The translations under genes and the position numbers were made by a program. From a virus, in IMG/VR virus record IMGVR_UViG_3300008954_003554, positions 19,334 through 83,333 of that record: 64,000 bases of DNA; one strand, 5' to 3'. The notes below the pieces were generated by a model, which saw only the letters and a list, made by a program, of their open reading frames with translations, was not told where the DNA came from and searched no databases. This document shows positions 6,214 to 50,865 of the stretch, piece by piece; the first letter of the stretch is position 1, and every line of letters starts with the position of its first letter.

Positions 6214-6603
6214 GTGGCACGAAAAAGGCGACAACGTAGGCGTAAGAGGGAGCTGTGGAGCAAGAAGTCAGACTACACATGTCTTGACGGATCGATAGTC
6301 TCAATGGATAGTACCTGGGAAGTTGCCTGTGCCAACCGTCTGGATGAACTTGGAATCCGATGGATAAGAAACCCATCTCTTAAGTTGAAGTACACCACGC
6401 GGGGCAGGAGACTCCGGAATTATATCCCAGACTTCTACCTGCCGGACCATGATGTCTACATCGAAGTCAAAGGGTATTGGACGGATTCGGCAAGACATAA
6501 GATGATGAGTGTGCAAGCACTGAATCCGGTAAAAATTATAATTCTCGAGAGCCTCGAAGAGATAGGAAGATTTGCCCCTGACCATCACGAAGATAAAGAA
6601 TAA
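6214..6603 (+). CDS. PD-(D/E)XK endonuclease (TnsA N-terminal / T7 endonuclease I-like)
   Basis: S-x-W-E and YIPDFYLPDHDVYIEVKG catalytic motif. Confidence 0.75.
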   Translation: MARKRRQRRRKRELWSKKSDYTCLDGSIVSMDSTWEVACANRLDELGIRWIRNPSLKLKYTTRGRRLRNYIPDFYLPDHDVYIEVKGYWTDSARHKMMSVQALNPVKIIILESLEEIGRFAPDHHEDKE

Positions 6604-6647: not shown

Positions 6648-6926
6648 ATGAAAATAACACGCAGACAGCTAAGACAGATTATTAAAGAAGAAACTAGAAA
6701 ACTATCAGAAGGGTGGGGTATAGATACTGGGATAGCGATTCCGAAACACGGCGTGACAATCGGTGATGTCCAGGACGAGGCTATGAGGCTTGATCAAGAC
6801 CTTTATTTCATTAACGACCGTGGAAAAACATATAAGGTGATGTCAGATGGTAATCTCCAAGGTCTGCCCGGAGATGAGCTTCCATCAGGTGTTGATGATA
6901 GATTAGTATATACAAGGAGATCATAA
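6648..6926 (+). CDS. tag-family protein
   Basis: MKITRRQLRQIIKEE...LSEG; ATAGTTATA at 6620. Confidence 0.8.
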   Translation: MKITRRQLRQIIKEETRKLSEGWGIDTGIAIPKHGVTIGDVQDEAMRLDQDLYFINDRGKTYKVMSDGNLQGLPGDELPSGVDDRLVYTRRS

Positions 6927-8303: not shown

Positions 8304-9125
8304 ATGAAAGTAGTATTATTTGATGCAATGAATCTGATACACAGGTCACGAAATGGTTTTCACAAAGGTGATCACCCACTAACATATCAGTTTTTTAGAT
8401 CATTCAAGCCCCTCCTAGAGAAGCTTCAGCCTGACCTGGCTTACTTTGTCTTAGAGGGCAGACCTAAGAGTCGAACTGAGGCATATACAGACTATAAGTC
8501 TAATCGGCCATCACTACCCGATTCGTTTTGGCGGCAGCAAGGAGAGATTCTAAGCATCATGCAAAATCTACCTGTCGTCCAGATCAGACATCCTGATCAT
8601 GAGTGTGATGATGTTATCGCCAATCTTGCGAAGCATCACACAGAGTCAGGGAATAGTGTTGTCATTGTGTCAGGTGATTCTGACTTCATTCAGGTGTTTG
8701 ACTCAATGGATCGTGAGCTCGTTGATATTTATCACCCAATTAAAAAGACGTTTGTCGAAAAACCTAACTACACCTATCTCGACTGGAAAGCACTCCGGGG
8801 AGATGTAAGTGACAACATTCCTGGAATCAAGGGGGTGGGAGATAAGACGGCGACTAAGCTCATCAATAATCCTGACCTGTTGAGTGAGACACTATCCAAT
8901 CCCGAGAAGCGTGAGATATTTGAAAGGAATAAGTCACTCATTGCTTTTCACTGGTTCGAAGATCTAAGTGATGACTTAAGAAATGAAGGTGCTGAGATCT
9001 TCTATCCTGTGCCCTCTATGAAAAATGTCATGGAATCGTTTGATCAGATGGGATTCAAGACCATGCTGACAGACAAGTACTGGCCGAAGTTTGAAGGTGC
9101 TTTTCACTCTCTGCTTACTGACTGA
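8304..9125 (+). CDS. 5'-3' exonuclease / flap endonuclease (PolI N-terminal, T4 RNase H-like)
   Basis: FDAMNLIHRS, YKSNR, ECDDVIA, SGDSDF and GDVSDNIPGIKGVGDKTA (helix-hairpin-helix) motifs. Confidence 0.92.
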   Translation: MKVVLFDAMNLIHRSRNGFHKGDHPLTYQFFRSFKPLLEKLQPDLAYFVLEGRPKSRTEAYTDYKSNRPSLPDSFWRQQGEILSIMQNLPVVQIRHPDHECDDVIANLAKHHTESGNSVVIVSGDSDFIQVFDSMDRELVDIYHPIKKTFVEKPNYTYLDWKALRGDVSDNIPGIKGVGDKTATKLINNPDLLSETLSNPEKREIFERNKSLIAFHWFEDLSDDLRNEGAEIFYPVPSMKNVMESFDQMGFKTMLTDKYWPKFEGAFHSLLTD

Positions 9126-9903
9126 TCCAGCACCCAGCATCTCGTGCGCTACTAATAATAAAATAATAGAGTAGCTTAATAGTTATATAGGAGCTGCAAG
9201 GGAGAGCACAAGACATGCGCATTACTCGTAAACAACTGAGAAGAATCGTACAAGAAGAGATCTTGAGAGAGCAACAGTACCAACCTAGACCACCCAGCCT
9301 CGGTCGCGCCGGAGATTCCCGACCCTTAGACCCCTCAGATGTGGAGGCAGGTGATGAGCTTCTTGACGTTCAGTTTAATATTCCAAACCGAGGGGGAAAT
9401 CCCAGGATGTTCACTGCCACTGCTAGCGGCGTCGATGCCCCGGGAGGTTTTGCCTATGTCTATGCAAAGCCAGTAAAGATACGCAGTGATCATCTCACTA
9501 AAAGCTACGACCCAGAAGAAGAGACCGGGGGACTTCGTCGGATAGTGCCAGCTGTAGGAGTGAGCGAGGACGATATTGAGATTGAAATAACTAGCTTTGA
9601 ATGTGTTGATCCCGCAGCAGGAACATACAGGATTAGCTGCGATTATGCATATGACGTCACTCTTGCCGGCCAAGATGCTGCGTCAGGTGATGGTACGACC
9701 ACCACCACATTGTCCTGGGCTGAGATGCAGGCTTTAGCCACAGCACTTAAGAGGGGTGAGCAGTTTGGAAAATATGAACCCCCTGCCCCGCACAATCAGC
9801 ATATAGGCATCAAGATATGCGTAACAGCTGGCACACCTAGATGGATATCCATCCGAGAGACCTGATCCAGGACCCAGCATCTCACCCGCTACTAATAATA
9901 AAA
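9122..9903 (+). repeat. 42-bp direct repeats (9122-9163, 9862-9903) flanking a tag-family gene
   Basis: CTGATCCAGsACCCAGCATCTCnnnCGCTACTAATAATAAAA, 38/42 identical. Confidence 0.85.
9215..9865 (+). CDS. tag-family protein (MRITRKQLRRIV...LREQQYQPR)
   Basis: Tag; ATAGTTATA at 9179; GGGAGA RBS. Confidence 0.8.
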   Translation: MRITRKQLRRIVQEEILREQQYQPRPPSLGRAGDSRPLDPSDVEAGDELLDVQFNIPNRGGNPRMFTATASGVDAPGGFAYVYAKPVKIRSDHLTKSYDPEEETGGLRRIVPAVGVSEDDIEIEITSFECVDPAAGTYRISCDYAYDVTLAGQDAASGDGTTTTTLSWAEMQALATALKRGEQFGKYEPPAPHNQHIGIKICVTAGTPRWISIRET

Positions 9904-11372: not shown

Positions 11373-11435
11373 TTAGTGACTGATCGAGCGCCCAGCATCG
11401 AGCGCCCAGCGAATCGTAGCAGCGAGCCCGGGACA

Positions 11436-12870: not shown

Positions 12871-13926
12871 ATGGATATCAAGACCTTCGCATCCACCGTT
12901 CGCGCCCTTCCGGCCGACGTCTCCGTTCTTATTCGAGGCCCACACGGGATCGGTAAGTCCCACCTCGCCGAGAAAGCGGCTGAGGACATAGGGCTGCCCC
13001 TCATCGACCGGCGTCTCTCGCAGATGTCCGAAGGTGACCTGGTCGGGTTGCCGGAACTGGTGGACGGTGTCACCCGCTTCTGCCCTCCGGACTGGTACGC
13101 TCGGGCTTGCCGCGAACCGGTGGTTCTCCTCCTGGACGAAATCAACCGGGCGACCCCGGAGCTCCAGCAGGGAGCCTTCCAGATCGTTCTGGCCCGGGAG
13201 CTTAACGGCCACAAGCTGCACCCCGACACCCGCGTCATCGCGGCAGTCAATGCCTCGGCAGAATACCAGGTGAACGAGATGGATCCGGCTCTGCTGGACC
13301 GATTCTGGGTTGTGGACCTGGACCCCACCACCGATGATTGGATCGAGTGGGCATCTGGCCCTGGAGATATTGACTCGGTCATCGTGGACTTCATTCGCCA
13401 CAATCCGGCTCACCTTCGATTCAAGGGACAGGCGGAGCCGGATAAGATCTACCCCTCTCCTCGGTCCTACGACCGGTTGAACCACACCTTGCAGCACGCC
13501 TCGATGGCACCTTCCGAGGTGGCTGGAGACGTCAAGTCGAACGTTGGATTCTACGCCATCTCTCACGGCTTCCTCGGTACCGAGGCTGCTATCGCCTTCC
13601 GGGACTTCGTTGATAACTACGAACTCCAGGTATCTCCGGAGGACGTGCTGAATGACTACAAGAAGAACAAGAAGTCTCTTGAGGCGCTCACCAATGATCA
13701 GGGGAATGGTCTGATCGCCAAGGTGGTTGACCACTGCAAGCAGAACAGCTGGACGGTGGATCAGTGCTCCAACCTCTCCAAGTGGGCTAAGACCCTGCCT
13801 GGTGAGATGATGGTGAGTCTCTGGAACGGTGTGATGGAGACCAAGGAGGTCAAGAACATCACCAAGCTCCACAAGTTCCTGGGTCAGTCTGTTGTTGAAG
13901 CAGTTCAGCGGTCACGCAGTCTGTAG
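12871..13926 (+). CDS. MoxR-family / dynein-related AAA+ ATPase
   Basis: Walker A GPHGIGKS, Walker B LLLDEINRA, DPALLDRF, SPRS. Confidence 0.92.
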   Translation: MDIKTFASTVRALPADVSVLIRGPHGIGKSHLAEKAAEDIGLPLIDRRLSQMSEGDLVGLPELVDGVTRFCPPDWYARACREPVVLLLDEINRATPELQQGAFQIVLARELNGHKLHPDTRVIAAVNASAEYQVNEMDPALLDRFWVVDLDPTTDDWIEWASGPGDIDSVIVDFIRHNPAHLRFKGQAEPDKIYPSPRSYDRLNHTLQHASMAPSEVAGDVKSNVGFYAISHGFLGTEAAIAFRDFVDNYELQVSPEDVLNDYKKNKKSLEALTNDQGNGLIAKVVDHCKQNSWTVDQCSNLSKWAKTLPGEMMVSLWNGVMETKEVKNITKLHKFLGQSVVEAVQRSRSL

Positions 13927-13943
13927 TTGTCCTGCCCCCTCCC

Positions 13944-13972
13944 GTGTAGCACACACGGGAGGGTGGTATAAT
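13944..13972 (+). promoter_or_regulatory. early-type promoter overlapped by an 11-bp hairpin
   Basis: GTGTAG-N17-TATAAT; CCCTCCCGTGT/ACACGGGAGGG stem. Confidence 0.8.
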
Positions 13973-13989
13973 ATAGTCAGGAGGTACTA

Positions 13990-15288
13990 ATGGAACCCAT
14001 GGAACAGAAAGATCAAGGCACCGCGACCGAGCTTCCGAGCAAGCTGGAAGCCACTGATGAACAGGTGTCTCGATTCAAGCTCGATGATCATCTCGTCAAC
14101 CTCATGTTGCACGAGCCTTTCTTCAGTCAGGTGATGGTTAAGCTCAACAAGTCAGAGACCAGCGCGGTGCCGACAGCAGGCGTCATGGTGAAGGACTGTG
14201 TCCCTCACTTCGTCTGGAACCCTCGATTCGTAGCAGCACTCTCGGCACTCAAGGTGCGAGGGCTTCTCAAGCACGAGTGCTACCATCTCATCTTCAATCA
14301 CTGCACCCAGCGTCGACAGGAGCCACACCGTGTGTGGAACTTCGCCACCGACCTGGCCATCAACTCAATCATTCCTCGCAAGGAGCTGCCAGACGGTGGT
14401 CTCTTCCCGGGTGAGGCACTCGACCTAAGCGGGATCACAGATCCCGAGCGGTTGAAGAAGTGGCAGAAGGTATCAGACCTGATCGCCTCGTTTCCTACCG
14501 AGAAGTCAGCTGATTGGTACTTCACCGAGCTGATGAAGGACCCTGAGATCTCTGAGACCATCGAGCCGGAGCCCGGTGAGGGTGAGCCCGGTGGGATGGA
14601 CGATCACGAAGGCTGGGGTGACATGTCTGATGAGGAACGTCAGGTGGTCGAAGGCCGCATCAAGCAGGCACTGGCAGAGGCAACTCGACGCTGTGATGGT
14701 AACGGGCAGTGGGGATCGGTCCCTAGCTCCGTCCAATCTCGAATCCGTCAGATGGTAAGTAACGAGGTGGACTGGAAGTCGCTTCTCAGGAACTTCTGTG
14801 GTCGGACACAAAGGGCTCACCGAAGCTCGACCATGAAGAGAATCAACCGGAAGTATCCGTACATTCACCCTGGTCGGAAGCGAGGTCACAGCGCTCACCT
14901 GGCCATCTACCTCGATCAGTCCGGTTCGGTTGCTGACGATGATATCGCCCTGCTGTTTGGTGAGCTCAACAACCTGGGCCGGATGGTTGAGTTCACGCTC
15001 ATCCCGTTCGACTCCACTGTGGACACAGAGAACGAGATGAAGTGGCGACGCGGTGCCAAGGTCCCACCCCAGCGCTGGCGGTCAGGAGGTACCTGCTTCG
15101 ATGCTGTGGCTAAGCACGCTGTCGAGAATAAGCACCGATTTGACGGCTACATCGTCCTCACTGACGGTGAGTGCTCTGATCCCGGGCCATCAAAGATGCG
15201 ACGGGCCTGGGTGATCGTTCCAGATCGGAAGCTCTACTTCAAGCCACACCCCAAGGATATGCTCATCAATATGAAGCGTAGCGTGTAG
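13990..15288 (+). CDS. DUF2201-type metallopeptidase-like plus vWA domain protein (AAA+ partner)
   Basis: HECYH (HExxH), WNFATDLAIN, MIDAS DQSGS, GGT, LTDG. Confidence 0.9.
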   Translation: MEPMEQKDQGTATELPSKLEATDEQVSRFKLDDHLVNLMLHEPFFSQVMVKLNKSETSAVPTAGVMVKDCVPHFVWNPRFVAALSALKVRGLLKHECYHLIFNHCTQRRQEPHRVWNFATDLAINSIIPRKELPDGGLFPGEALDLSGITDPERLKKWQKVSDLIASFPTEKSADWYFTELMKDPEISETIEPEPGEGEPGGMDDHEGWGDMSDEERQVVEGRIKQALAEATRRCDGNGQWGSVPSSVQSRIRQMVSNEVDWKSLLRNFCGRTQRAHRSSTMKRINRKYPYIHPGRKRGHSAHLAIYLDQSGSVADDDIALLFGELNNLGRMVEFTLIPFDSTVDTENEMKWRRGAKVPPQRWRSGGTCFDAVAKHAVENKHRFDGYIVLTDGECSDPGPSKMRRAWVIVPDRKLYFKPHPKDMLINMKRSV

Positions 15289-16086: not shown

Positions 16087-16833
16087 ATGAAGCTTAAAGT
16101 CAATCACAGTGTCTCACGAGGCACAAACATCCTGAATGTGGATGTCCCAGATCAACTTCGAAAGAGGATTCCTACCGGACTTCCTCACATTGATGATGCA
16201 CTGGGAGGCAGGGGATTTACCCCGTCCATGGTTACTCTCTTCACCGGAACACCTGGTGCGGGTAAGACCACACTCATGCTCGAAGCAGCCAATGCTTTGC
16301 AGGGAAAGGGTGCCACAGTTCTCTTCAATACCGCTGAGGAATCTCTCTTTCAGCTCAAGATGACAGTTGAGCGACTGGGTCTCCGTCACGGTTTTGTGGC
16401 AGGACAGGATACCATGGTCAAGAACTTGCTGGAGCACGCTGATGAGCTTCGCGCTAGCAATCCGAACAAGCCCTTCTTCCTCATCGTGGACTCTCTGCAG
16501 TGCCTCAATGATGGTAAGTACGGTAACCACCAGACCAACAGCAAGACAGCTCAGCGGTCGTTGTCGATGATTACGGATTATTGTAAGAAGCACTTCTGCA
16601 ATGCTGTTATCATTGGGCAGGTCACCAAGTCAGGTGCTATGGCAGGAGCAAACGTCCTGAAGCACATGGTTGATGCTTACATCACTCTTGATGTGGAGCG
16701 CAAGGATCAGGATCTGCTCGGTTGTCGGGTACTCGCCACTGAGAAGAATCGGTTCGGCGGTGCTGGTCACATCTTCTTCCTCGCTCTGAGGGAATCTGGT
16801 TTTATGGAGGTATCACGGGTTTCGGTGGGTTAA
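16087..16833 (+). CDS. radA: RadA/Sms-like RecA-fold ATPase (ATPase domain only)
   Basis: TGLPHIDDALGG, GTPGAGKT, AEES, VDSLQ, LKHMVD and the KNRFG signature; no Zn finger or Lon-like domain. Confidence 0.8.
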   Translation: MKLKVNHSVSRGTNILNVDVPDQLRKRIPTGLPHIDDALGGRGFTPSMVTLFTGTPGAGKTTLMLEAANALQGKGATVLFNTAEESLFQLKMTVERLGLRHGFVAGQDTMVKNLLEHADELRASNPNKPFFLIVDSLQCLNDGKYGNHQTNSKTAQRSLSMITDYCKKHFCNAVIIGQVTKSGAMAGANVLKHMVDAYITLDVERKDQDLLGCRVLATEKNRFGGAGHIFFLALRESGFMEVSRVSVG

Positions 16834-18817: not shown

Positions 18818-19600
18818 ATGCCACGCAAATCTCACGATCTTCGTCTTAGTCAGGCTGTTGAGCTTCTTCAGGCCTATGAGGCAGCTGACCATCAAGGGAC
18901 CGAGGTCTCTTTCGTCAGGGACATGATTGCCCGCATGGGGCGTCGGAAGCAGATGTCTCCCAAGCAGAGGGGCTGGCTTGATTCACTCATCGAGCAGGGG
19001 GTTCCAGCTCCCAAGGGGGACTCAAAGCTTATTGATGAGATCGAGCGCCTGCTCAAAGTTCCCGGCGCTGATCACGTTCATCAGCCGCTGCGAGACTTTC
19101 TCTTCCGAGAAAAGAAGGGTTGGACACTTTCTCCCAAGCAGATCGCCTTTCGAGACAGGCTGATAGATGAAGCCAGAGTCATCGAGCGCGACGGTCCTTG
19201 GTTCCCATCGAGCGAGCAAGCAGAAAAGCTCAGAAGCTGTGCAGCTATGTCTCCGAGCCGCAGCGGGATGTACTGGTCCACGCACCCAGGCGAGGAGCGA
19301 GCGCTTAAGAAGGTTTTGTCGTGGCTAGAGGGCTGTGATAAGTTTGTAGACTCGTGGTCTGTAGACAAGGTGCTTCACAGCTTCAGGAGCGGATTGAAAG
19401 AGATGGAGGCACCTTACGCTTCCGCCGGTGATATCGTCTGGGGGAATCACGGAAAGTATTACGGAAAGATGGCTCTTGTTACCGGTGGTCCTGCCATCGC
19501 TGAGAACGGCCGTATCGGATACCCGGTCTTGATCGACGGGGTATCAACAACCTTCTCGAAAGGGATGATCACCAAGCGCCGACCGAAGGCAAGGGAGTAA
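18818..19600 (+). CDS. hypothetical protein with a duplicated SPKQ helical motif and a C-terminal SH3-like domain
   Basis: AAGGAGG RBS before ATG 18818; MSPKQ and LSPKQ repeats; SAGDIVW. Confidence 0.75.
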   Translation: MPRKSHDLRLSQAVELLQAYEAADHQGTEVSFVRDMIARMGRRKQMSPKQRGWLDSLIEQGVPAPKGDSKLIDEIERLLKVPGADHVHQPLRDFLFREKKGWTLSPKQIAFRDRLIDEARVIERDGPWFPSSEQAEKLRSCAAMSPSRSGMYWSTHPGEERALKKVLSWLEGCDKFVDSWSVDKVLHSFRSGLKEMEAPYASAGDIVWGNHGKYYGKMALVTGGPAIAENGRIGYPVLIDGVSTTFSKGMITKRRPKARE

Positions 19601-48218: not shown

Positions 48219-48407
48219 ATGAGTAAGACAGATTTAGTTAACCAGTGGACAGAACTTAAAGTTCTAGTTGAAAGCCTAGAGCTTGATGTTCTTAAAAATG
48301 CAAACGGGAACAAGTCAGCAGGTGTTAGAGCAAGAAAAGGTCTTAGGCTTCTTAAGCAGAGATCTGGCGATCTTGTTAAGACTTCGTTGCTAGAAGACAA
48401 GAGCTAA
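48219..48407 (+). CDS. histone H1-like (Hc1-family) small protein
   Basis: GNKSAGVRARK signature; AAGGAG RBS. Confidence 0.75.
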   Translation: MSKTDLVNQWTELKVLVESLELDVLKNANGNKSAGVRARKGLRLLKQRSGDLVKTSLLEDKS

Positions 48408-48418
48408 TATATAAACAT

Positions 48419-48787
48419 GGGCCCGAAACGGCTTCGACGGGGTAGGAGAGAAGAAGAGTGCAGGTGGTCGCACGAGACAGCGGACCTTAAGCGTGGTTTC
48501 AAAACTTTAATTGCCAATAACAATTATCACTTCGAATCTGTCCGCCTAGCGGCTTAATCGGTGGGGTTTCTTAAGACCTTATTACCCAATTTAAGATAAC
48601 AGGTAGAGATCCTGCGAAATAAAAAAATCAGAATGGTTCCCTGGAAACAGGTGGGGCGCAACAGGTTGATAAGCGCAGGGATGATCAACTATCTTTTCTA
48701 ATTTGTGATAGTAAATTAGATAAACCTGTGAATGACTTGACTTTGAAGCTATTGCGGACGCGGGTTCGACTCCCGCCGGGTCCACCA
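48419..48787 (+). ncRNA. ssrA: tmRNA; tag peptide ANNNYHFESVRLAA (48513-48557)
   Basis: Acceptor GGGCCCG/CGGGTCC with G3.U wobble, GGCTTCGAC, GGTTCGACTCCC T-arm, ACCA end; tag ORF ends LAA-stop. Confidence 0.95.
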
Positions 48788-49528
48788 TTTTTTATGTTTC
48801 TCAGCTAGCCAGATAGTTATATCTGCACGGGAGATCTACAATGAAGGTAACAAGATCACAGTTGAGAAGAATTATTAAAGAAGAGCTAAATAGAGCCTTA
48901 CTTATGGAGAGAGGGACAGCGGATTCTGTTGCAACTAAGCAGGCATGCCCGGAAGAATATTGCAGTCGATCTGTAGCAAAGGTTGGAAATCTAGTTCAGG
49001 ATACCGGGGGCTATAGTTTCACACCATCTGGAGGGTCAGAGTATCCATCATTTAAGGACGAAAAAGAAAACCTCATTGGAAAAGAGGGGACAGAGTGGTC
49101 AGATCTCAAGGTTGTTAAGTACGATGATGACTCGGAAAAAAGAGCCACAGAGAGTCGAGAGATAGAGCGTCGAGAGAAAGAAGCAGCCAATCTTCAGAAG
49201 AAACTCAATGACATCATAGATGAAATCGGAGAGAATAACTCATGGGCAACTGTCGATGAGATGTCTAAAAACAGCGGTGCTTGTGATGGCTGTAAGGTCT
49301 GGGTGAGATTTCATTTGAATGTAAACGACTATGATGACAGAGCTGATATGCCGAAAGATTGGGATGGGACTCCTTCCGAGGGAAAGATAGATCAACAGAA
49401 GCTATGGGCCGCAATCGACAAGGCATCATTTTGGCTTGCTAAGCTCTACGATGAGGGAAGTATCGATGATCAGACATATCAGCTCAAGTATAAGTGATTC
49501 GACTCCCGCCGGGTCCACCATTTTTTAT
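48765..49528 (+). repeat. 31-bp perfect direct repeat of the tmRNA 3' end (48765-48795, 49498-49528)
   Basis: TTCGACTCCCGCCGGGTCCACCATTTTTTAT in both copies. Confidence 0.92.
48841..49497 (+). CDS. tag-family protein lying between the tmRNA-end repeats
   Basis: MKVTRSQLRRIIKEE...LLME; ATAGTTATA at 48813. Confidence 0.82.
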   Translation: MKVTRSQLRRIIKEELNRALLMERGTADSVATKQACPEEYCSRSVAKVGNLVQDTGGYSFTPSGGSEYPSFKDEKENLIGKEGTEWSDLKVVKYDDDSEKRATESREIERREKEAANLQKKLNDIIDEIGENNSWATVDEMSKNSGACDGCKVWVRFHLNVNDYDDRADMPKDWDGTPSEGKIDQQKLWAAIDKASFWLAKLYDEGSIDDQTYQLKYK

Positions 49529-49557
49529 ATTTTTCAGATTCAGTGATATTTATACAC

Positions 49558-50571
49558 ATGCTGATAACTGAGTCAAAGCTAAGAAGAATCATTAGAGAAG
49601 AGTTTAAACAACAATTCACACCCAAAGAGATGGGCATTGATCACGATCCCGAAGAGCGAAAGGCATTAAAATGGTGGCAAAGCCCTAAAAAAAGACAGGA
49701 ATTTGCAGAGAGCTATACTTCCGGACAAAATAGAATCTCTCTTATCAGCACAGTTAAATCTAAAGTTTTCAAATCAGATACACCTGATGATATTATAAAA
49801 GATTATTACGACGAATTTATACTACCCCAGATCCTATACATTATCAATGAAACGTGGGTCGTACGGGAGCCTTTGCGATCTAAAAAAGGAACAAGATATG
49901 TCAGTCCGAACTGGAGTGAAAAAGGCTCTCAAGAGTTACATGATCCAAATCGCATAAGTAAGTCTGGCAAAATTGTGAAAGGAACTAATTGGATCGCAAT
50001 CATCCCTGGTCTCGTAGCCGGCTTATTAGCAGGTCCGATCTGGGGTGGTCTGGTTGGTGGAGTTATGCTACTAGTAAAAGCAATAGAGTGGAGAAGATAC
50101 ACTTTTGGTCATGAGTTATCGCACGCAATAGACAGGGAAGTTGATCTTATGATGGGAATCAGGTGGGAGAACGGATATCAGAATCCAAAAAGTATCTATA
50201 GACAGTCTACTGATCCAGTAGAAAATCCAAAATACTTACCCTATAGAAATGAAAAAATAAAGATAAATCGGGGATCTATTGTTGCCCACCAGAGAGAAAT
50301 TCTAAGAGATATATTCCCATGTATTAATGAGGATCATCCAGAATATAAGGATGAACATGCACATAGTCCGGGTGAGCTGTACTCTAACGTAATTCAAACA
50401 CGTAAAAATCTAAAAAGAAAATTTAAAGCTAGTGATATTAAAAAATGGAGGGTGCGTGGGAAGATACCGGTAGGGGGGCATAGTTCAGTATCTGATTTGG
50501 TACAAATTATAAAAGCATGCGGAAATGGATCTAACGAAGAGATTGCAACTGCATTAAACAAGCTAGGCTGA
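49558..50571 (+). CDS. tag-family protein with a Gly-zipper TM segment and HExxH metallopeptidase motif
   Basis: MLITESKLRRIIREE; GLVAGLLAGPIWGGLVGG; GHELSHAID. Confidence 0.78.
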   Translation: MLITESKLRRIIREEFKQQFTPKEMGIDHDPEERKALKWWQSPKKRQEFAESYTSGQNRISLISTVKSKVFKSDTPDDIIKDYYDEFILPQILYIINETWVVREPLRSKKGTRYVSPNWSEKGSQELHDPNRISKSGKIVKGTNWIAIIPGLVAGLLAGPIWGGLVGGVMLLVKAIEWRRYTFGHELSHAIDREVDLMMGIRWENGYQNPKSIYRQSTDPVENPKYLPYRNEKIKINRGSIVAHQREILRDIFPCINEDHPEYKDEHAHSPGELYSNVIQTRKNLKRKFKASDIKKWRVRGKIPVGGHSSVSDLVQIIKACGNGSNEEIATALNKLG

Positions 50572-50652: not shown

Positions 50653-50865
50653 ATGGGTGATTCAAAAAGCGGGTACCAGCTCCGCACAGACTTGCTGGGA
50701 ATGGCTACAGGAATTGTAATTGACAGGGCTAATCGTCTTGAGAATAATGAGCACTTCCTGGCAGAAAATGATAAAACATATCAGCGTAAGCCAGTTTCTC
50801 CGTATACAACCGAGGATGTTATTGCTGAAGCTGAGAAGCTTTATGTATTCGTTCAGAAGAAGTAG
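50653..50865 (+). CDS. small hypothetical phage protein
   Basis: AAGGA RBS; GYQLRTDLL...PYTTEDVIAEAEKLYVFV. Confidence 0.75.
   Translation: MGDSKSGYQLRTDLLGMATGIVIDRANRLENNEHFLAENDKTYQRKPVSPYTTEDVIAEAEKLYVFVQKK

Follow-up and report, generated by a model that had tools for sequence, protein, structure and literature searches.

PeSL (promoter early stem-loop) cassettes of T4-type phages are short promoter-terminator blocks around ORFans, with variable crossovers and no dedicated recombinase (Arbiol et al. 2010, PMC2839356; Comeau et al. 2014, PMC4122927), and both mini-circles and PeSL-mediated insertions or deletions (indels) have been documented in phages without dedicated recombinases (PMC2839356, PMC4122927). 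Tycheposons of Prochlorococcus are tandem integrative elements, or remnants of such elements, located at tRNA or transfer-messenger RNA (tmRNA) genes (bioRxiv 10.1101/2020.12.28.424599). We describe here a locus that shares features with both, found in a window of 64,000 nucleotides (positions 19,334 to 83,333 of the 83,333-bp IMG/VR viral record IMGVR_UViG_3300008954_003554, called G000 below and estimated to be about 23% complete). In this window, a 733-bp unit carrying a single gene, X, is flanked by two identical copies of the 3' end of the phage's own tmRNA gene. The source genome is a fragment of an uncultured marine jumbo phage, and the region behind its tmRNA gene is a recurrent hotspot of gene gain, which the phage's ordinary recombination most likely drives, and not an integrase. 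Window positions are used throughout, and L- and G-numbers denote related loci and large related records, respectively.

X starts with an N-terminal tag of the MKITRRQLRQIIKEE type, which is also found at the start of the downstream gene Y and of about 20 further plus-strand open reading frames (ORFs). The locus is composed as follows.

48219..48407, plus strand: Hc1-like histone gene, conserved left neighbour of the tmRNA gene (Pfam PF07432, E 7e-9).
48419..48787, plus strand: intact phage tmRNA gene with an encoded CCA, a G3:U pair and the tag ANNNYHFESVRLAA (ARAGORN, Rfam).
48765..48795, plus strand: repeat copy 1, from the T-loop TTCGA through CCA and TTTTTTAT, the functional tmRNA 3' end (repeat and pattern search).
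48796..48840, plus strand: leader of X, with a T-rich spacer, the late-type motif ATAGTTATA (48813-48821) and the ribosome-binding site (RBS) GGGAGA (48829-48834) (sequence, motif statistics).
48841..49497, plus strand: cargo gene X, a 218-aa ORFan with the N-terminal tag MKVTRSQLRRIIKEEL and four Cys (ORF list).
49498..49528, plus strand: repeat copy 2, an orphan tmRNA 3' end directly after the stop codon of X (repeat and pattern search).
49529..49557, plus strand: displaced native leader, with the motif ATATTTATA (49546-49554) and no clear RBS (sequence comparison).
49558..50571, plus strand: gene Y, a 337-aa tagged protein (MLITESKLRRIIREE) with a hydrophobic segment and a HELSH motif (ORF list).
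50653..50865, plus strand: conserved 70-aa gene of family F6, right-side marker of the variable interval (tblastn, gene-order maps).

The tmRNA gene, which matches the full Rfam model RF00023 (109 bits, positions 1-374), is kept full-length, and its 3' segment is repeated directly around the insert, as in integrative elements. The two 31-bp direct copies, which are not palindromic, are identical and lie 733 bp apart, and their similarity extends over 57 nt at 84%, through ATAGTTATA on one side and ATATTTATA on the other. Only the T-rich spacer, the late-type motif, the RBS and ORF X are found between them, and the TGA stop codon of X (49495-49497) abuts copy 2. The sequence-only reading of this DNA had described precisely this arrangement, a perfect 31-bp repeat around a 733-bp unit holding a late-type motif, an RBS and a tagged ORF alone, with the second copy directly after the stop codon and another tagged gene (Y, from 49558) behind it, and it holds in every detail; the absence of an integrase was also borne out, as none is present in the contig.

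The last 23 nt of the tmRNA gene, from the T-loop TTCGA to CCA, occur twice in the window, where none are expected from shuffled sequences. When the search of the 83-kb contig was relaxed to 19 of 27 matching positions, still just these two copies were found, the other match being the T-arm of a tRNA-Arg gene, for which no duplication of the 3' end was found. Copy 2 is not a gene, because it lacks the T-stem 5' strand, with one of five positions matching. It was also tried, and rejected, as a terminator, since its 5-bp stem is weak and its folding z-score of -0.85 is no better than that of shuffles. The leader motif, written as ATA[GT]TTAT[AT], occurs ten times on the plus strand and twice on the minus strand (about two by chance), and eight of the ten precede tagged ORFs. 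The tmRNA 3' end, the leader and the first 9 codons of X are 91% identical over 176 nt to the region behind the tmRNA gene of L088, in a stretch of homology that runs from the tmRNA gene through the leader and ends 9 codons into the tag. Copy 2 (from 49498) and the displaced leader are 82-86% identical to the DNA directly behind the tmRNA genes of L132 and L065.

The cargo itself gives few clues. X matches no Pfam or PHROG family, its homologs among 5.8 billion proteins amount to one cluster of 84% identity with the same C-terminus, and its predicted fold is of low confidence and uninformative for function. Searched against viral contigs, X and Y gave matches limited to the tag, or none. A paralogous relationship of X to Y, to the L088 cargo or to an ORF at 9215 described below was considered and rejected, the tag alone being common to them.

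Relatives were sought with two queries. With a conserved neighbour gene (154 aa), 28 viral loci were found on contigs of up to 257 kb, and 12 of these loci have a syntenic tmRNA gene. With the 23-mer from T-loop to CCA, the yield was 23 viral contigs and at least 120 from marine metagenomes; orphan copies in these relatives were searched with mismatches allowed. The exact 31-mer has no match in the viral contigs searched. Among 50,697 deposited phages, no relatives were found by blastn with the region, tblastn with the conserved neighbour or blastn with the tmRNA gene, the only hit being a 34-nt match to the tmRNA end, and the 23-mer search of cellular genomes gave 15 scattered matches in metagenome-assembled genomes, from which no host was inferred. 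The tmRNA 3' end is the sole segment that is identical among more than 140 otherwise divergent contigs. In five sequencing runs (X1-X5), positions 48698-48811 have a k-mer depth of 300-1400, against about 3-10 for the remainder of the phage (about 100-fold), and many distinct continuations follow the CCA, pointing to a large community of relatives with an identical tmRNA end.

The arrangement recurs in these relatives. Orphan tmRNA 3' ends on the same strand, downstream of the tmRNA gene or of another cassette, were found in L088, L119, L132, L112, L089/L105, L083, L100, L108 and L065, and about 6 of the 72 related loci with at least 1 kb of downstream sequence have a tmRNA-linked orphan copy. 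Overall, such a copy adjoins varying genes in about 10% of some 110 related marine phage contigs. The cargos are single, mutually unrelated genes, in units of 0.2-1.6 kb with phage-type leaders. They include tagged proteins of 296, 365/500 and 127 aa, a 187-aa protein, an 86-aa ferredoxin (Fer4_13, E 7e-13), a 402-aa radical SAM enzyme (E 1e-16) and a 52-aa membrane peptide; the range of cargos extends beyond tagged genes, the ferredoxin being untagged, and the earlier suggestion of a mechanism dedicated to tagged cargo is not supported. Some relatives harbor arrays of two or three cassettes, in the order K, degenerate copy, A, copy, 70-aa gene in L108; A, copy, radical SAM, copy in L100; and A, copy, peptide gene, copy in L083. 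The junction between cassette A and its copy is common to seven further loci, and it is found in at least six different downstream contexts. Two side observations concern these arrays. In L100 (oriented positions 351-1559), the radical SAM ORF is in frame through the partial copy and the T-run, with a gain of about 12 codons (…DSTPAGSTILRR), and upstream of it lies a remnant tag ORF that stops after 6 codons (MKITRN-stop). In L108, the copy on the upstream side (oriented 504-530) has 20 of 27 matches and the distal one (962-988) has 27 of 27, which is opposite to the pattern of older, decayed copies further out and hints that copies are refreshed by recombination.

Filled and empty sites could be paired in four cases (L100/L108, L088/L106, L089/L011 and L132/L112), in which the flank alignments overlap by exactly the duplicated 26-32 nt. 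Both the empty sites and the alternative cargos that the sequence-only reading had suggested looking for in relatives are therefore on record, and the relatives do not all carry the same gene and repeat. In the L100/L108 pair, the cassette is inserted at an orphan copy, so that insertion is not confined to the tmRNA gene, and in the L089/L011 pair the flanks are mosaic, with 82% identity on the left and 95.6% on the right. Behind most of the orphan copies that can be matched, the DNA is another relative's native post-tmRNA DNA, at 85-100% identity. The DNA directly after the CCA varies between relatives, and the interval from the tmRNA gene to PhoH is a mosaic of shuffled small gene families, that is, a hyperplastic region. 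The first ORFs after the tmRNA gene in relatives include those for ferredoxins, Fe-S assembly, DDAH/arginine deiminase-like proteins, ClpS, tubulin/FtsZ-like proteins, Hc1 and a phage metallopeptidase.

The edges of the duplicated block are not constant. In 8-9 of 11 junctions, its left edge coincides with the T-loop or is no more than 3 nt away from it. Exceptions are L119, with an edge at -29 nt, the block beginning about 29 nt before the T-loop, and L065, with an edge at +11 nt, where the block begins 11 nt inside the 23-mer and runs for 98 nt (53 of them perfect) over the T-run, the promoter motif, the ATG and the tag start. The right edge ranges from 3 nt past the CCA to inside the tag. 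Homology between cassettes A of L108 and L112 begins at the promoter motif and not at the T-loop. In degenerate copies, the 5' part has decayed and TCCACCATTTT is kept.

The reading that we favour, with about an even chance of being right, is that the 733-bp unit is a PeSL-like cassette and that the tmRNA 3' end is part of a shared homology block shuffled by phage recombination. A self-contained expression cassette, made of the late-type promoter motif, the RBS and the tagged ORFan X, would have been stacked behind the phage's own tmRNA gene when recombination with the DNA of a related phage brought it into the hypervariable region. The incoming piece would supply its own T-loop-to-CCA end, T-run, leader and tag start, so that the tmRNA gene would stay intact and the resident 3' end, with its leader and Y, would be displaced downstream as an orphan. 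The shared block of about 30-100 nt, encompassing the tmRNA 3' end, the T-run, the promoter motif and the tag-coding start, may thereby serve as a portable homology patch: it would be the sole DNA conserved among divergent co-infecting relatives, and the phage recombination machinery would make use of it. Homologous partners should abound, because the tmRNA 3' end reaches about 100 times the depth of the phage in the same samples. With the direct repeats in place, cassettes could then be lost, reinserted or exchanged, also at orphan copies. Recombination genes are present in the window, namely those for a RecA/UvsX/KaiC-like ATPase (16087-16830), a 5'-3' exonuclease and an endonuclease I or Holliday-junction-resolvase-like protein (6214-6600). 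The recombination route itself, as well as the origin of the first junction between a cargo end and a T-loop, is what we infer from these observations.

The PeSL analogy is supported by several likenesses. Both systems are found in large lytic phages without an integrase, concern ORFans in hyperplastic regions and involve a short patch of regulatory homology; in both, indels between relatives are bounded by the block, crossovers are variable inside it, and each cassette has its own promoter. When the locus was compared with the PeSL definition, block-bounded ORFan indels in a hyperplastic region and variable crossovers inside the block were found; a terminator stem-loop together with a sigma-70-like early promoter was not, the genome's sigma-70-like promoters being located elsewhere. 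In contrast with PeSLs, the block here consists of the tmRNA gene from T-loop to CCA, the T-run and the late-type ATAGTTATA, and often reaches into the N-terminal tag; it is confined to one locus, whereas PeSL blocks are spread over the hyperplastic region, and its terminator stem-loop is weak or absent.

A number of points weigh against this reading. The copy starts exactly at TTCGA in four independent non-degenerate junctions (X, W, A and radical SAM), and four degenerate junctions start within 3 nt of it, so that the T-loop edge looks defined by an enzyme or by a structure, a sharpness that general recombination does not predict. Nor does this reading account for the position of the cargo's stop codon, which abuts the T-loop or overlaps it in three or four junctions (those of X, A and K and of the peptide gene in L083). 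The block of perfect identity in the window is just 31 bp, short for efficient homologous exchange, and the PeSL analogy is incomplete because the orphan copy is unconvincing as a terminator. Finally, no circle or recombinant molecule was seen among the unitigs, whose k of 31 cannot tell a circle from a tandem arrangement.

The sharp left edge might instead reflect a site-specific recombinase acting in trans, encoded by a host island, a satellite or an unrecognised phage protein, with the segment from T-loop to CCA as attB and a cassette circle as attP. This possibility, which we consider unlikely, would make the cassettes comparable to cargo-only remnants of tycheposon-type elements. The extent of the duplication fits, as attachment sites in tRNA and tmRNA genes, said to have been described by Williams in 2002, reportedly show duplication from the T-loop to just past the CCA, and the tmRNA gene is regenerated. 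Moreover, cassettes stack beside the gene in arrays with partial copies, as in tycheposon islands, an orphan copy of 23-32 nt suffices as a target, and the cassette-A junction is found in its various downstream contexts. However, no tyrosine recombinase (PF00589) was detected in the available part of G000 (about 23% complete), where a search had been proposed, or in 40 related viral records; five of these are large relatives, and complete genomes are among them, one of 293 kb having terminal repeats. No serine recombinase (PF00239) was detected in G000 and four large relatives, and the controls were positive. A recombinase gene is missing from every cassette, and so is a core inverted repeat, the 5 nt before orphan copies matching the T-stem 5' strand at 0-2 of 5 positions. 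Boundaries are also found at -29 and +11, and homology reaches the promoter and the tag. The cargos also carry phage-type leaders and tags and therefore appear to circulate among phages and not host islands. Thus, of the earlier proposal of a single-gene cassette integrated site-specifically by an integrase in trans, the gain of a discrete single-gene cassette at the tmRNA 3' end stands, but the integrase is not supported, given the records searched, the missing core arm and the variable boundaries, which include -29 and +11.

Compared with tycheposon arrays, the locus is similarly marine, has partial copies of tRNA or tmRNA 3' ends between insertions, with tmRNA genes among the targets, and shows new insertions beside the intact gene with degenerate partial copies further away. 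Tycheposons, on the other hand, reside in cellular chromosomes, span kilobases and either have tyrosine recombinases or are what is left of elements that had them. Here, a phage's tmRNA gene of its own is the target, each unit is a single gene with a length of 0.2-1.6 kb, and the relatives searched yielded no recombinase.

Alternatively, gene conversion could be initiated by a homing-type or hairpin-specific nuclease that cuts the tmRNA gene 5' of the T-loop, with repair from a co-infecting relative, an explanation that we also judge improbable. The left end would be joined by tmRNA homology and the right end without homology, and the donor 3' end with its neighbour gene would be copied in, leaving the resident 3' end as an orphan. 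SbcCD-type hairpin nucleases cleave 5' of the loop. Such a cut would account for a sharp, recurrent break point between stem and loop combined with an arbitrary cargo side; the L100 radical SAM ORF that is in frame through the copy and the mosaic flanks of L089/L011 also speak for this explanation. A candidate enzyme is present in the window:

6214-6600: gene for a 129-aa endonuclease I or Holliday-junction-resolvase-like protein of the PD-(D/E)XK type (PHROG E about 1e-13, Pfam sub-threshold).

The gene is located 42 kb from the tmRNA gene, among tagged genes, and is 89% identical to a gene of L090 (2735-3121) that adjoins the tmRNA gene; in L038 it is the first ORF after the tmRNA gene. To judge from these positions, the endonuclease I-like gene itself changes place, and its proximity to the tmRNA gene in L090 and L038 would suit the nuclease model; no repeats were found to flank it, which does not. 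Neither X, in Pfam and PHROG searches, nor the other cargos contain a nuclease domain, and HNH and GIY-YIG are absent from the families listed for 115 tmRNA-proximal ORFs of relatives. Searches for GIY-YIG and HNH genes gave either nothing or genes without a link to the tmRNA gene; among the GIY-YIG genes of large relatives, the one established distance is about 78 kb, in G002. In addition, random joining does not predict stop codons at the junction. As in the case of free-standing homing endonuclease genes at phage tRNA genes (T4 SegB) or of mobile endonuclease ORFs that supply an additional gene terminus, insertion takes place in the 3' part of a gene, the duplicated terminus keeps the gene functional, and no integrase is involved. 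Unlike them, the cassettes here have no nuclease and bring in accessory genes unrelated to each other; that a nuclease acts in trans is hypothetical.

It has also to be considered, although we hold it doubtful, that lytic marine jumbo phages possess an integron-like platform, in which the tmRNA segment from T-loop to CCA is a dedicated attachment site where single-gene cassettes that end exactly at a stop codon are inserted, stacked and exchanged by an unrecognised trans-acting enzyme. Candidates for this role would be a site-specific recombinase and a nuclease specific for the T-loop, such as the mobile endonuclease I-like protein. Integron cassettes do provide a parallel, with arrays of single genes, a site at or after the stop codon and insertion beside a fixed site. 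In contrast to integrons, no match to IntI (PF00589) and no palindromic attC were found here, each cassette has its own promoter motif, and the repeat is the end of an RNA gene.

That the contig is a chimera, produced when the assembler was deceived by the 31-bp repeat, with X coming from behind another strain's tmRNA gene, is almost certainly wrong: Logan unitigs (k=31) do break at the repeat, cannot resolve order there, leaving that of the tmRNA gene and X undecided, and cannot reveal circles or empty sites, but a 605-nt unitig from another sample (49251-49855) runs with zero differences from the 3' portion of X across the copy into the beginning of Y, a 762-nt unitig in one run spans exactly 48766-49527 and has the repeat segment on both sides of X, unitig depths are similar, and the identical X protein is on record on 4 contigs of up to 102 kb. 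Unitig depth was 8.9 for X and 10.2-10.8 for the flanks, a slight drop that was not counted as evidence. Because unitigs bridge X, the copy and Y, and independent contigs of many relatives have the same architecture, the repeat is not an assembly artefact.

An analogous unit is found elsewhere in the window:

9122..9903, plus strand: single-gene unit with a tagged 216-aa ORF, ORF 9215 (repeat search, sequence).

Its repeats, of 42 nt and 90% identity, are 740 bp apart and unrelated to the tmRNA gene, and the order of its parts is stop codon, repeat, AT-rich stretch, ATAGTTATA, RBS, tagged ORF, stop codon, repeat. The unit exists, as the sequence-only reading had said, but its likeness in size to the X unit is not homology, since ORF 9215 and X are unrelated beyond the tag. 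That a second repeat-flanked single gene, with another repeat, is present in this genome speaks for the shuffling reading. A third, weak copy of the 42-nt repeat lies at 11380. Tag-coding DNA is conserved at the nucleotide level, with 64-95% identity across 18 genes, and the stretches at 2755-2798 and 6648-6691 are 95% identical over 44 nt in genes that are otherwise unrelated; the tag start itself could be a recombination anchor.

Some further observations concern neighbouring genes. The tmRNA gene starts 11 nt past the stop codon of the Hc1-like gene (48407-48419) with no promoter-like site between them, and the tmRNA is probably processed from a longer transcript. Homologs of the Hc1-like gene lie upstream of the tmRNA gene in about 70 related loci, and homologs of the F6 gene were found by tblastn in 15 loci at 47-87% identity. 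In Y, a Gly-rich hydrophobic segment, IIPGLVAGLLAGPIWGGLVGGVMLLV, is followed by HELSH; no Pfam or PHROG family matches Y, a clear RBS is missing in front of its ATG, and its sequence suggests a membrane-associated protein resembling zinc metallopeptidases. Its homolog in L065 (46% identity) is likewise preceded by a partial tmRNA copy. At 12871-15285, a MoxR-like AAA ATPase gene is followed by that of a DUF2201/VWA-like protein, which bears the PHROGs label 'HNH endonuclease'; for a MoxR/VWA-like pair, this label looks wrong.

Shuffling of the PeSL type and att-like duplication of a gene terminus are already known, and the locus does not constitute a new category on present evidence. What sets it apart is the combination of the phage's own tmRNA gene as the target, single accessory genes with phage-type leaders as the cargo, cassettes without a nuclease or integrase gene, and the formation of arrays. 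If no enzyme is involved, PeSL-type shuffling extends to a new group of phages and to a new kind of homology block, in which the coding start of a common protein tag takes part; if an enzyme sets the break point at the T-loop, the hotspot would represent a new compact system of cassette capture. How large lytic phages acquire ORFans is poorly understood, and in this clade acquisition leaves a readable scar, the orphan tmRNA 3' end, which records every gain, makes it possible to match filled sites with empty ones and reveals the order of successive insertions. The ultra-conserved end of an RNA gene can thus serve as a landing pad for new genes in a virus, as tRNA and tmRNA genes do in cells, but apparently without an integrase.

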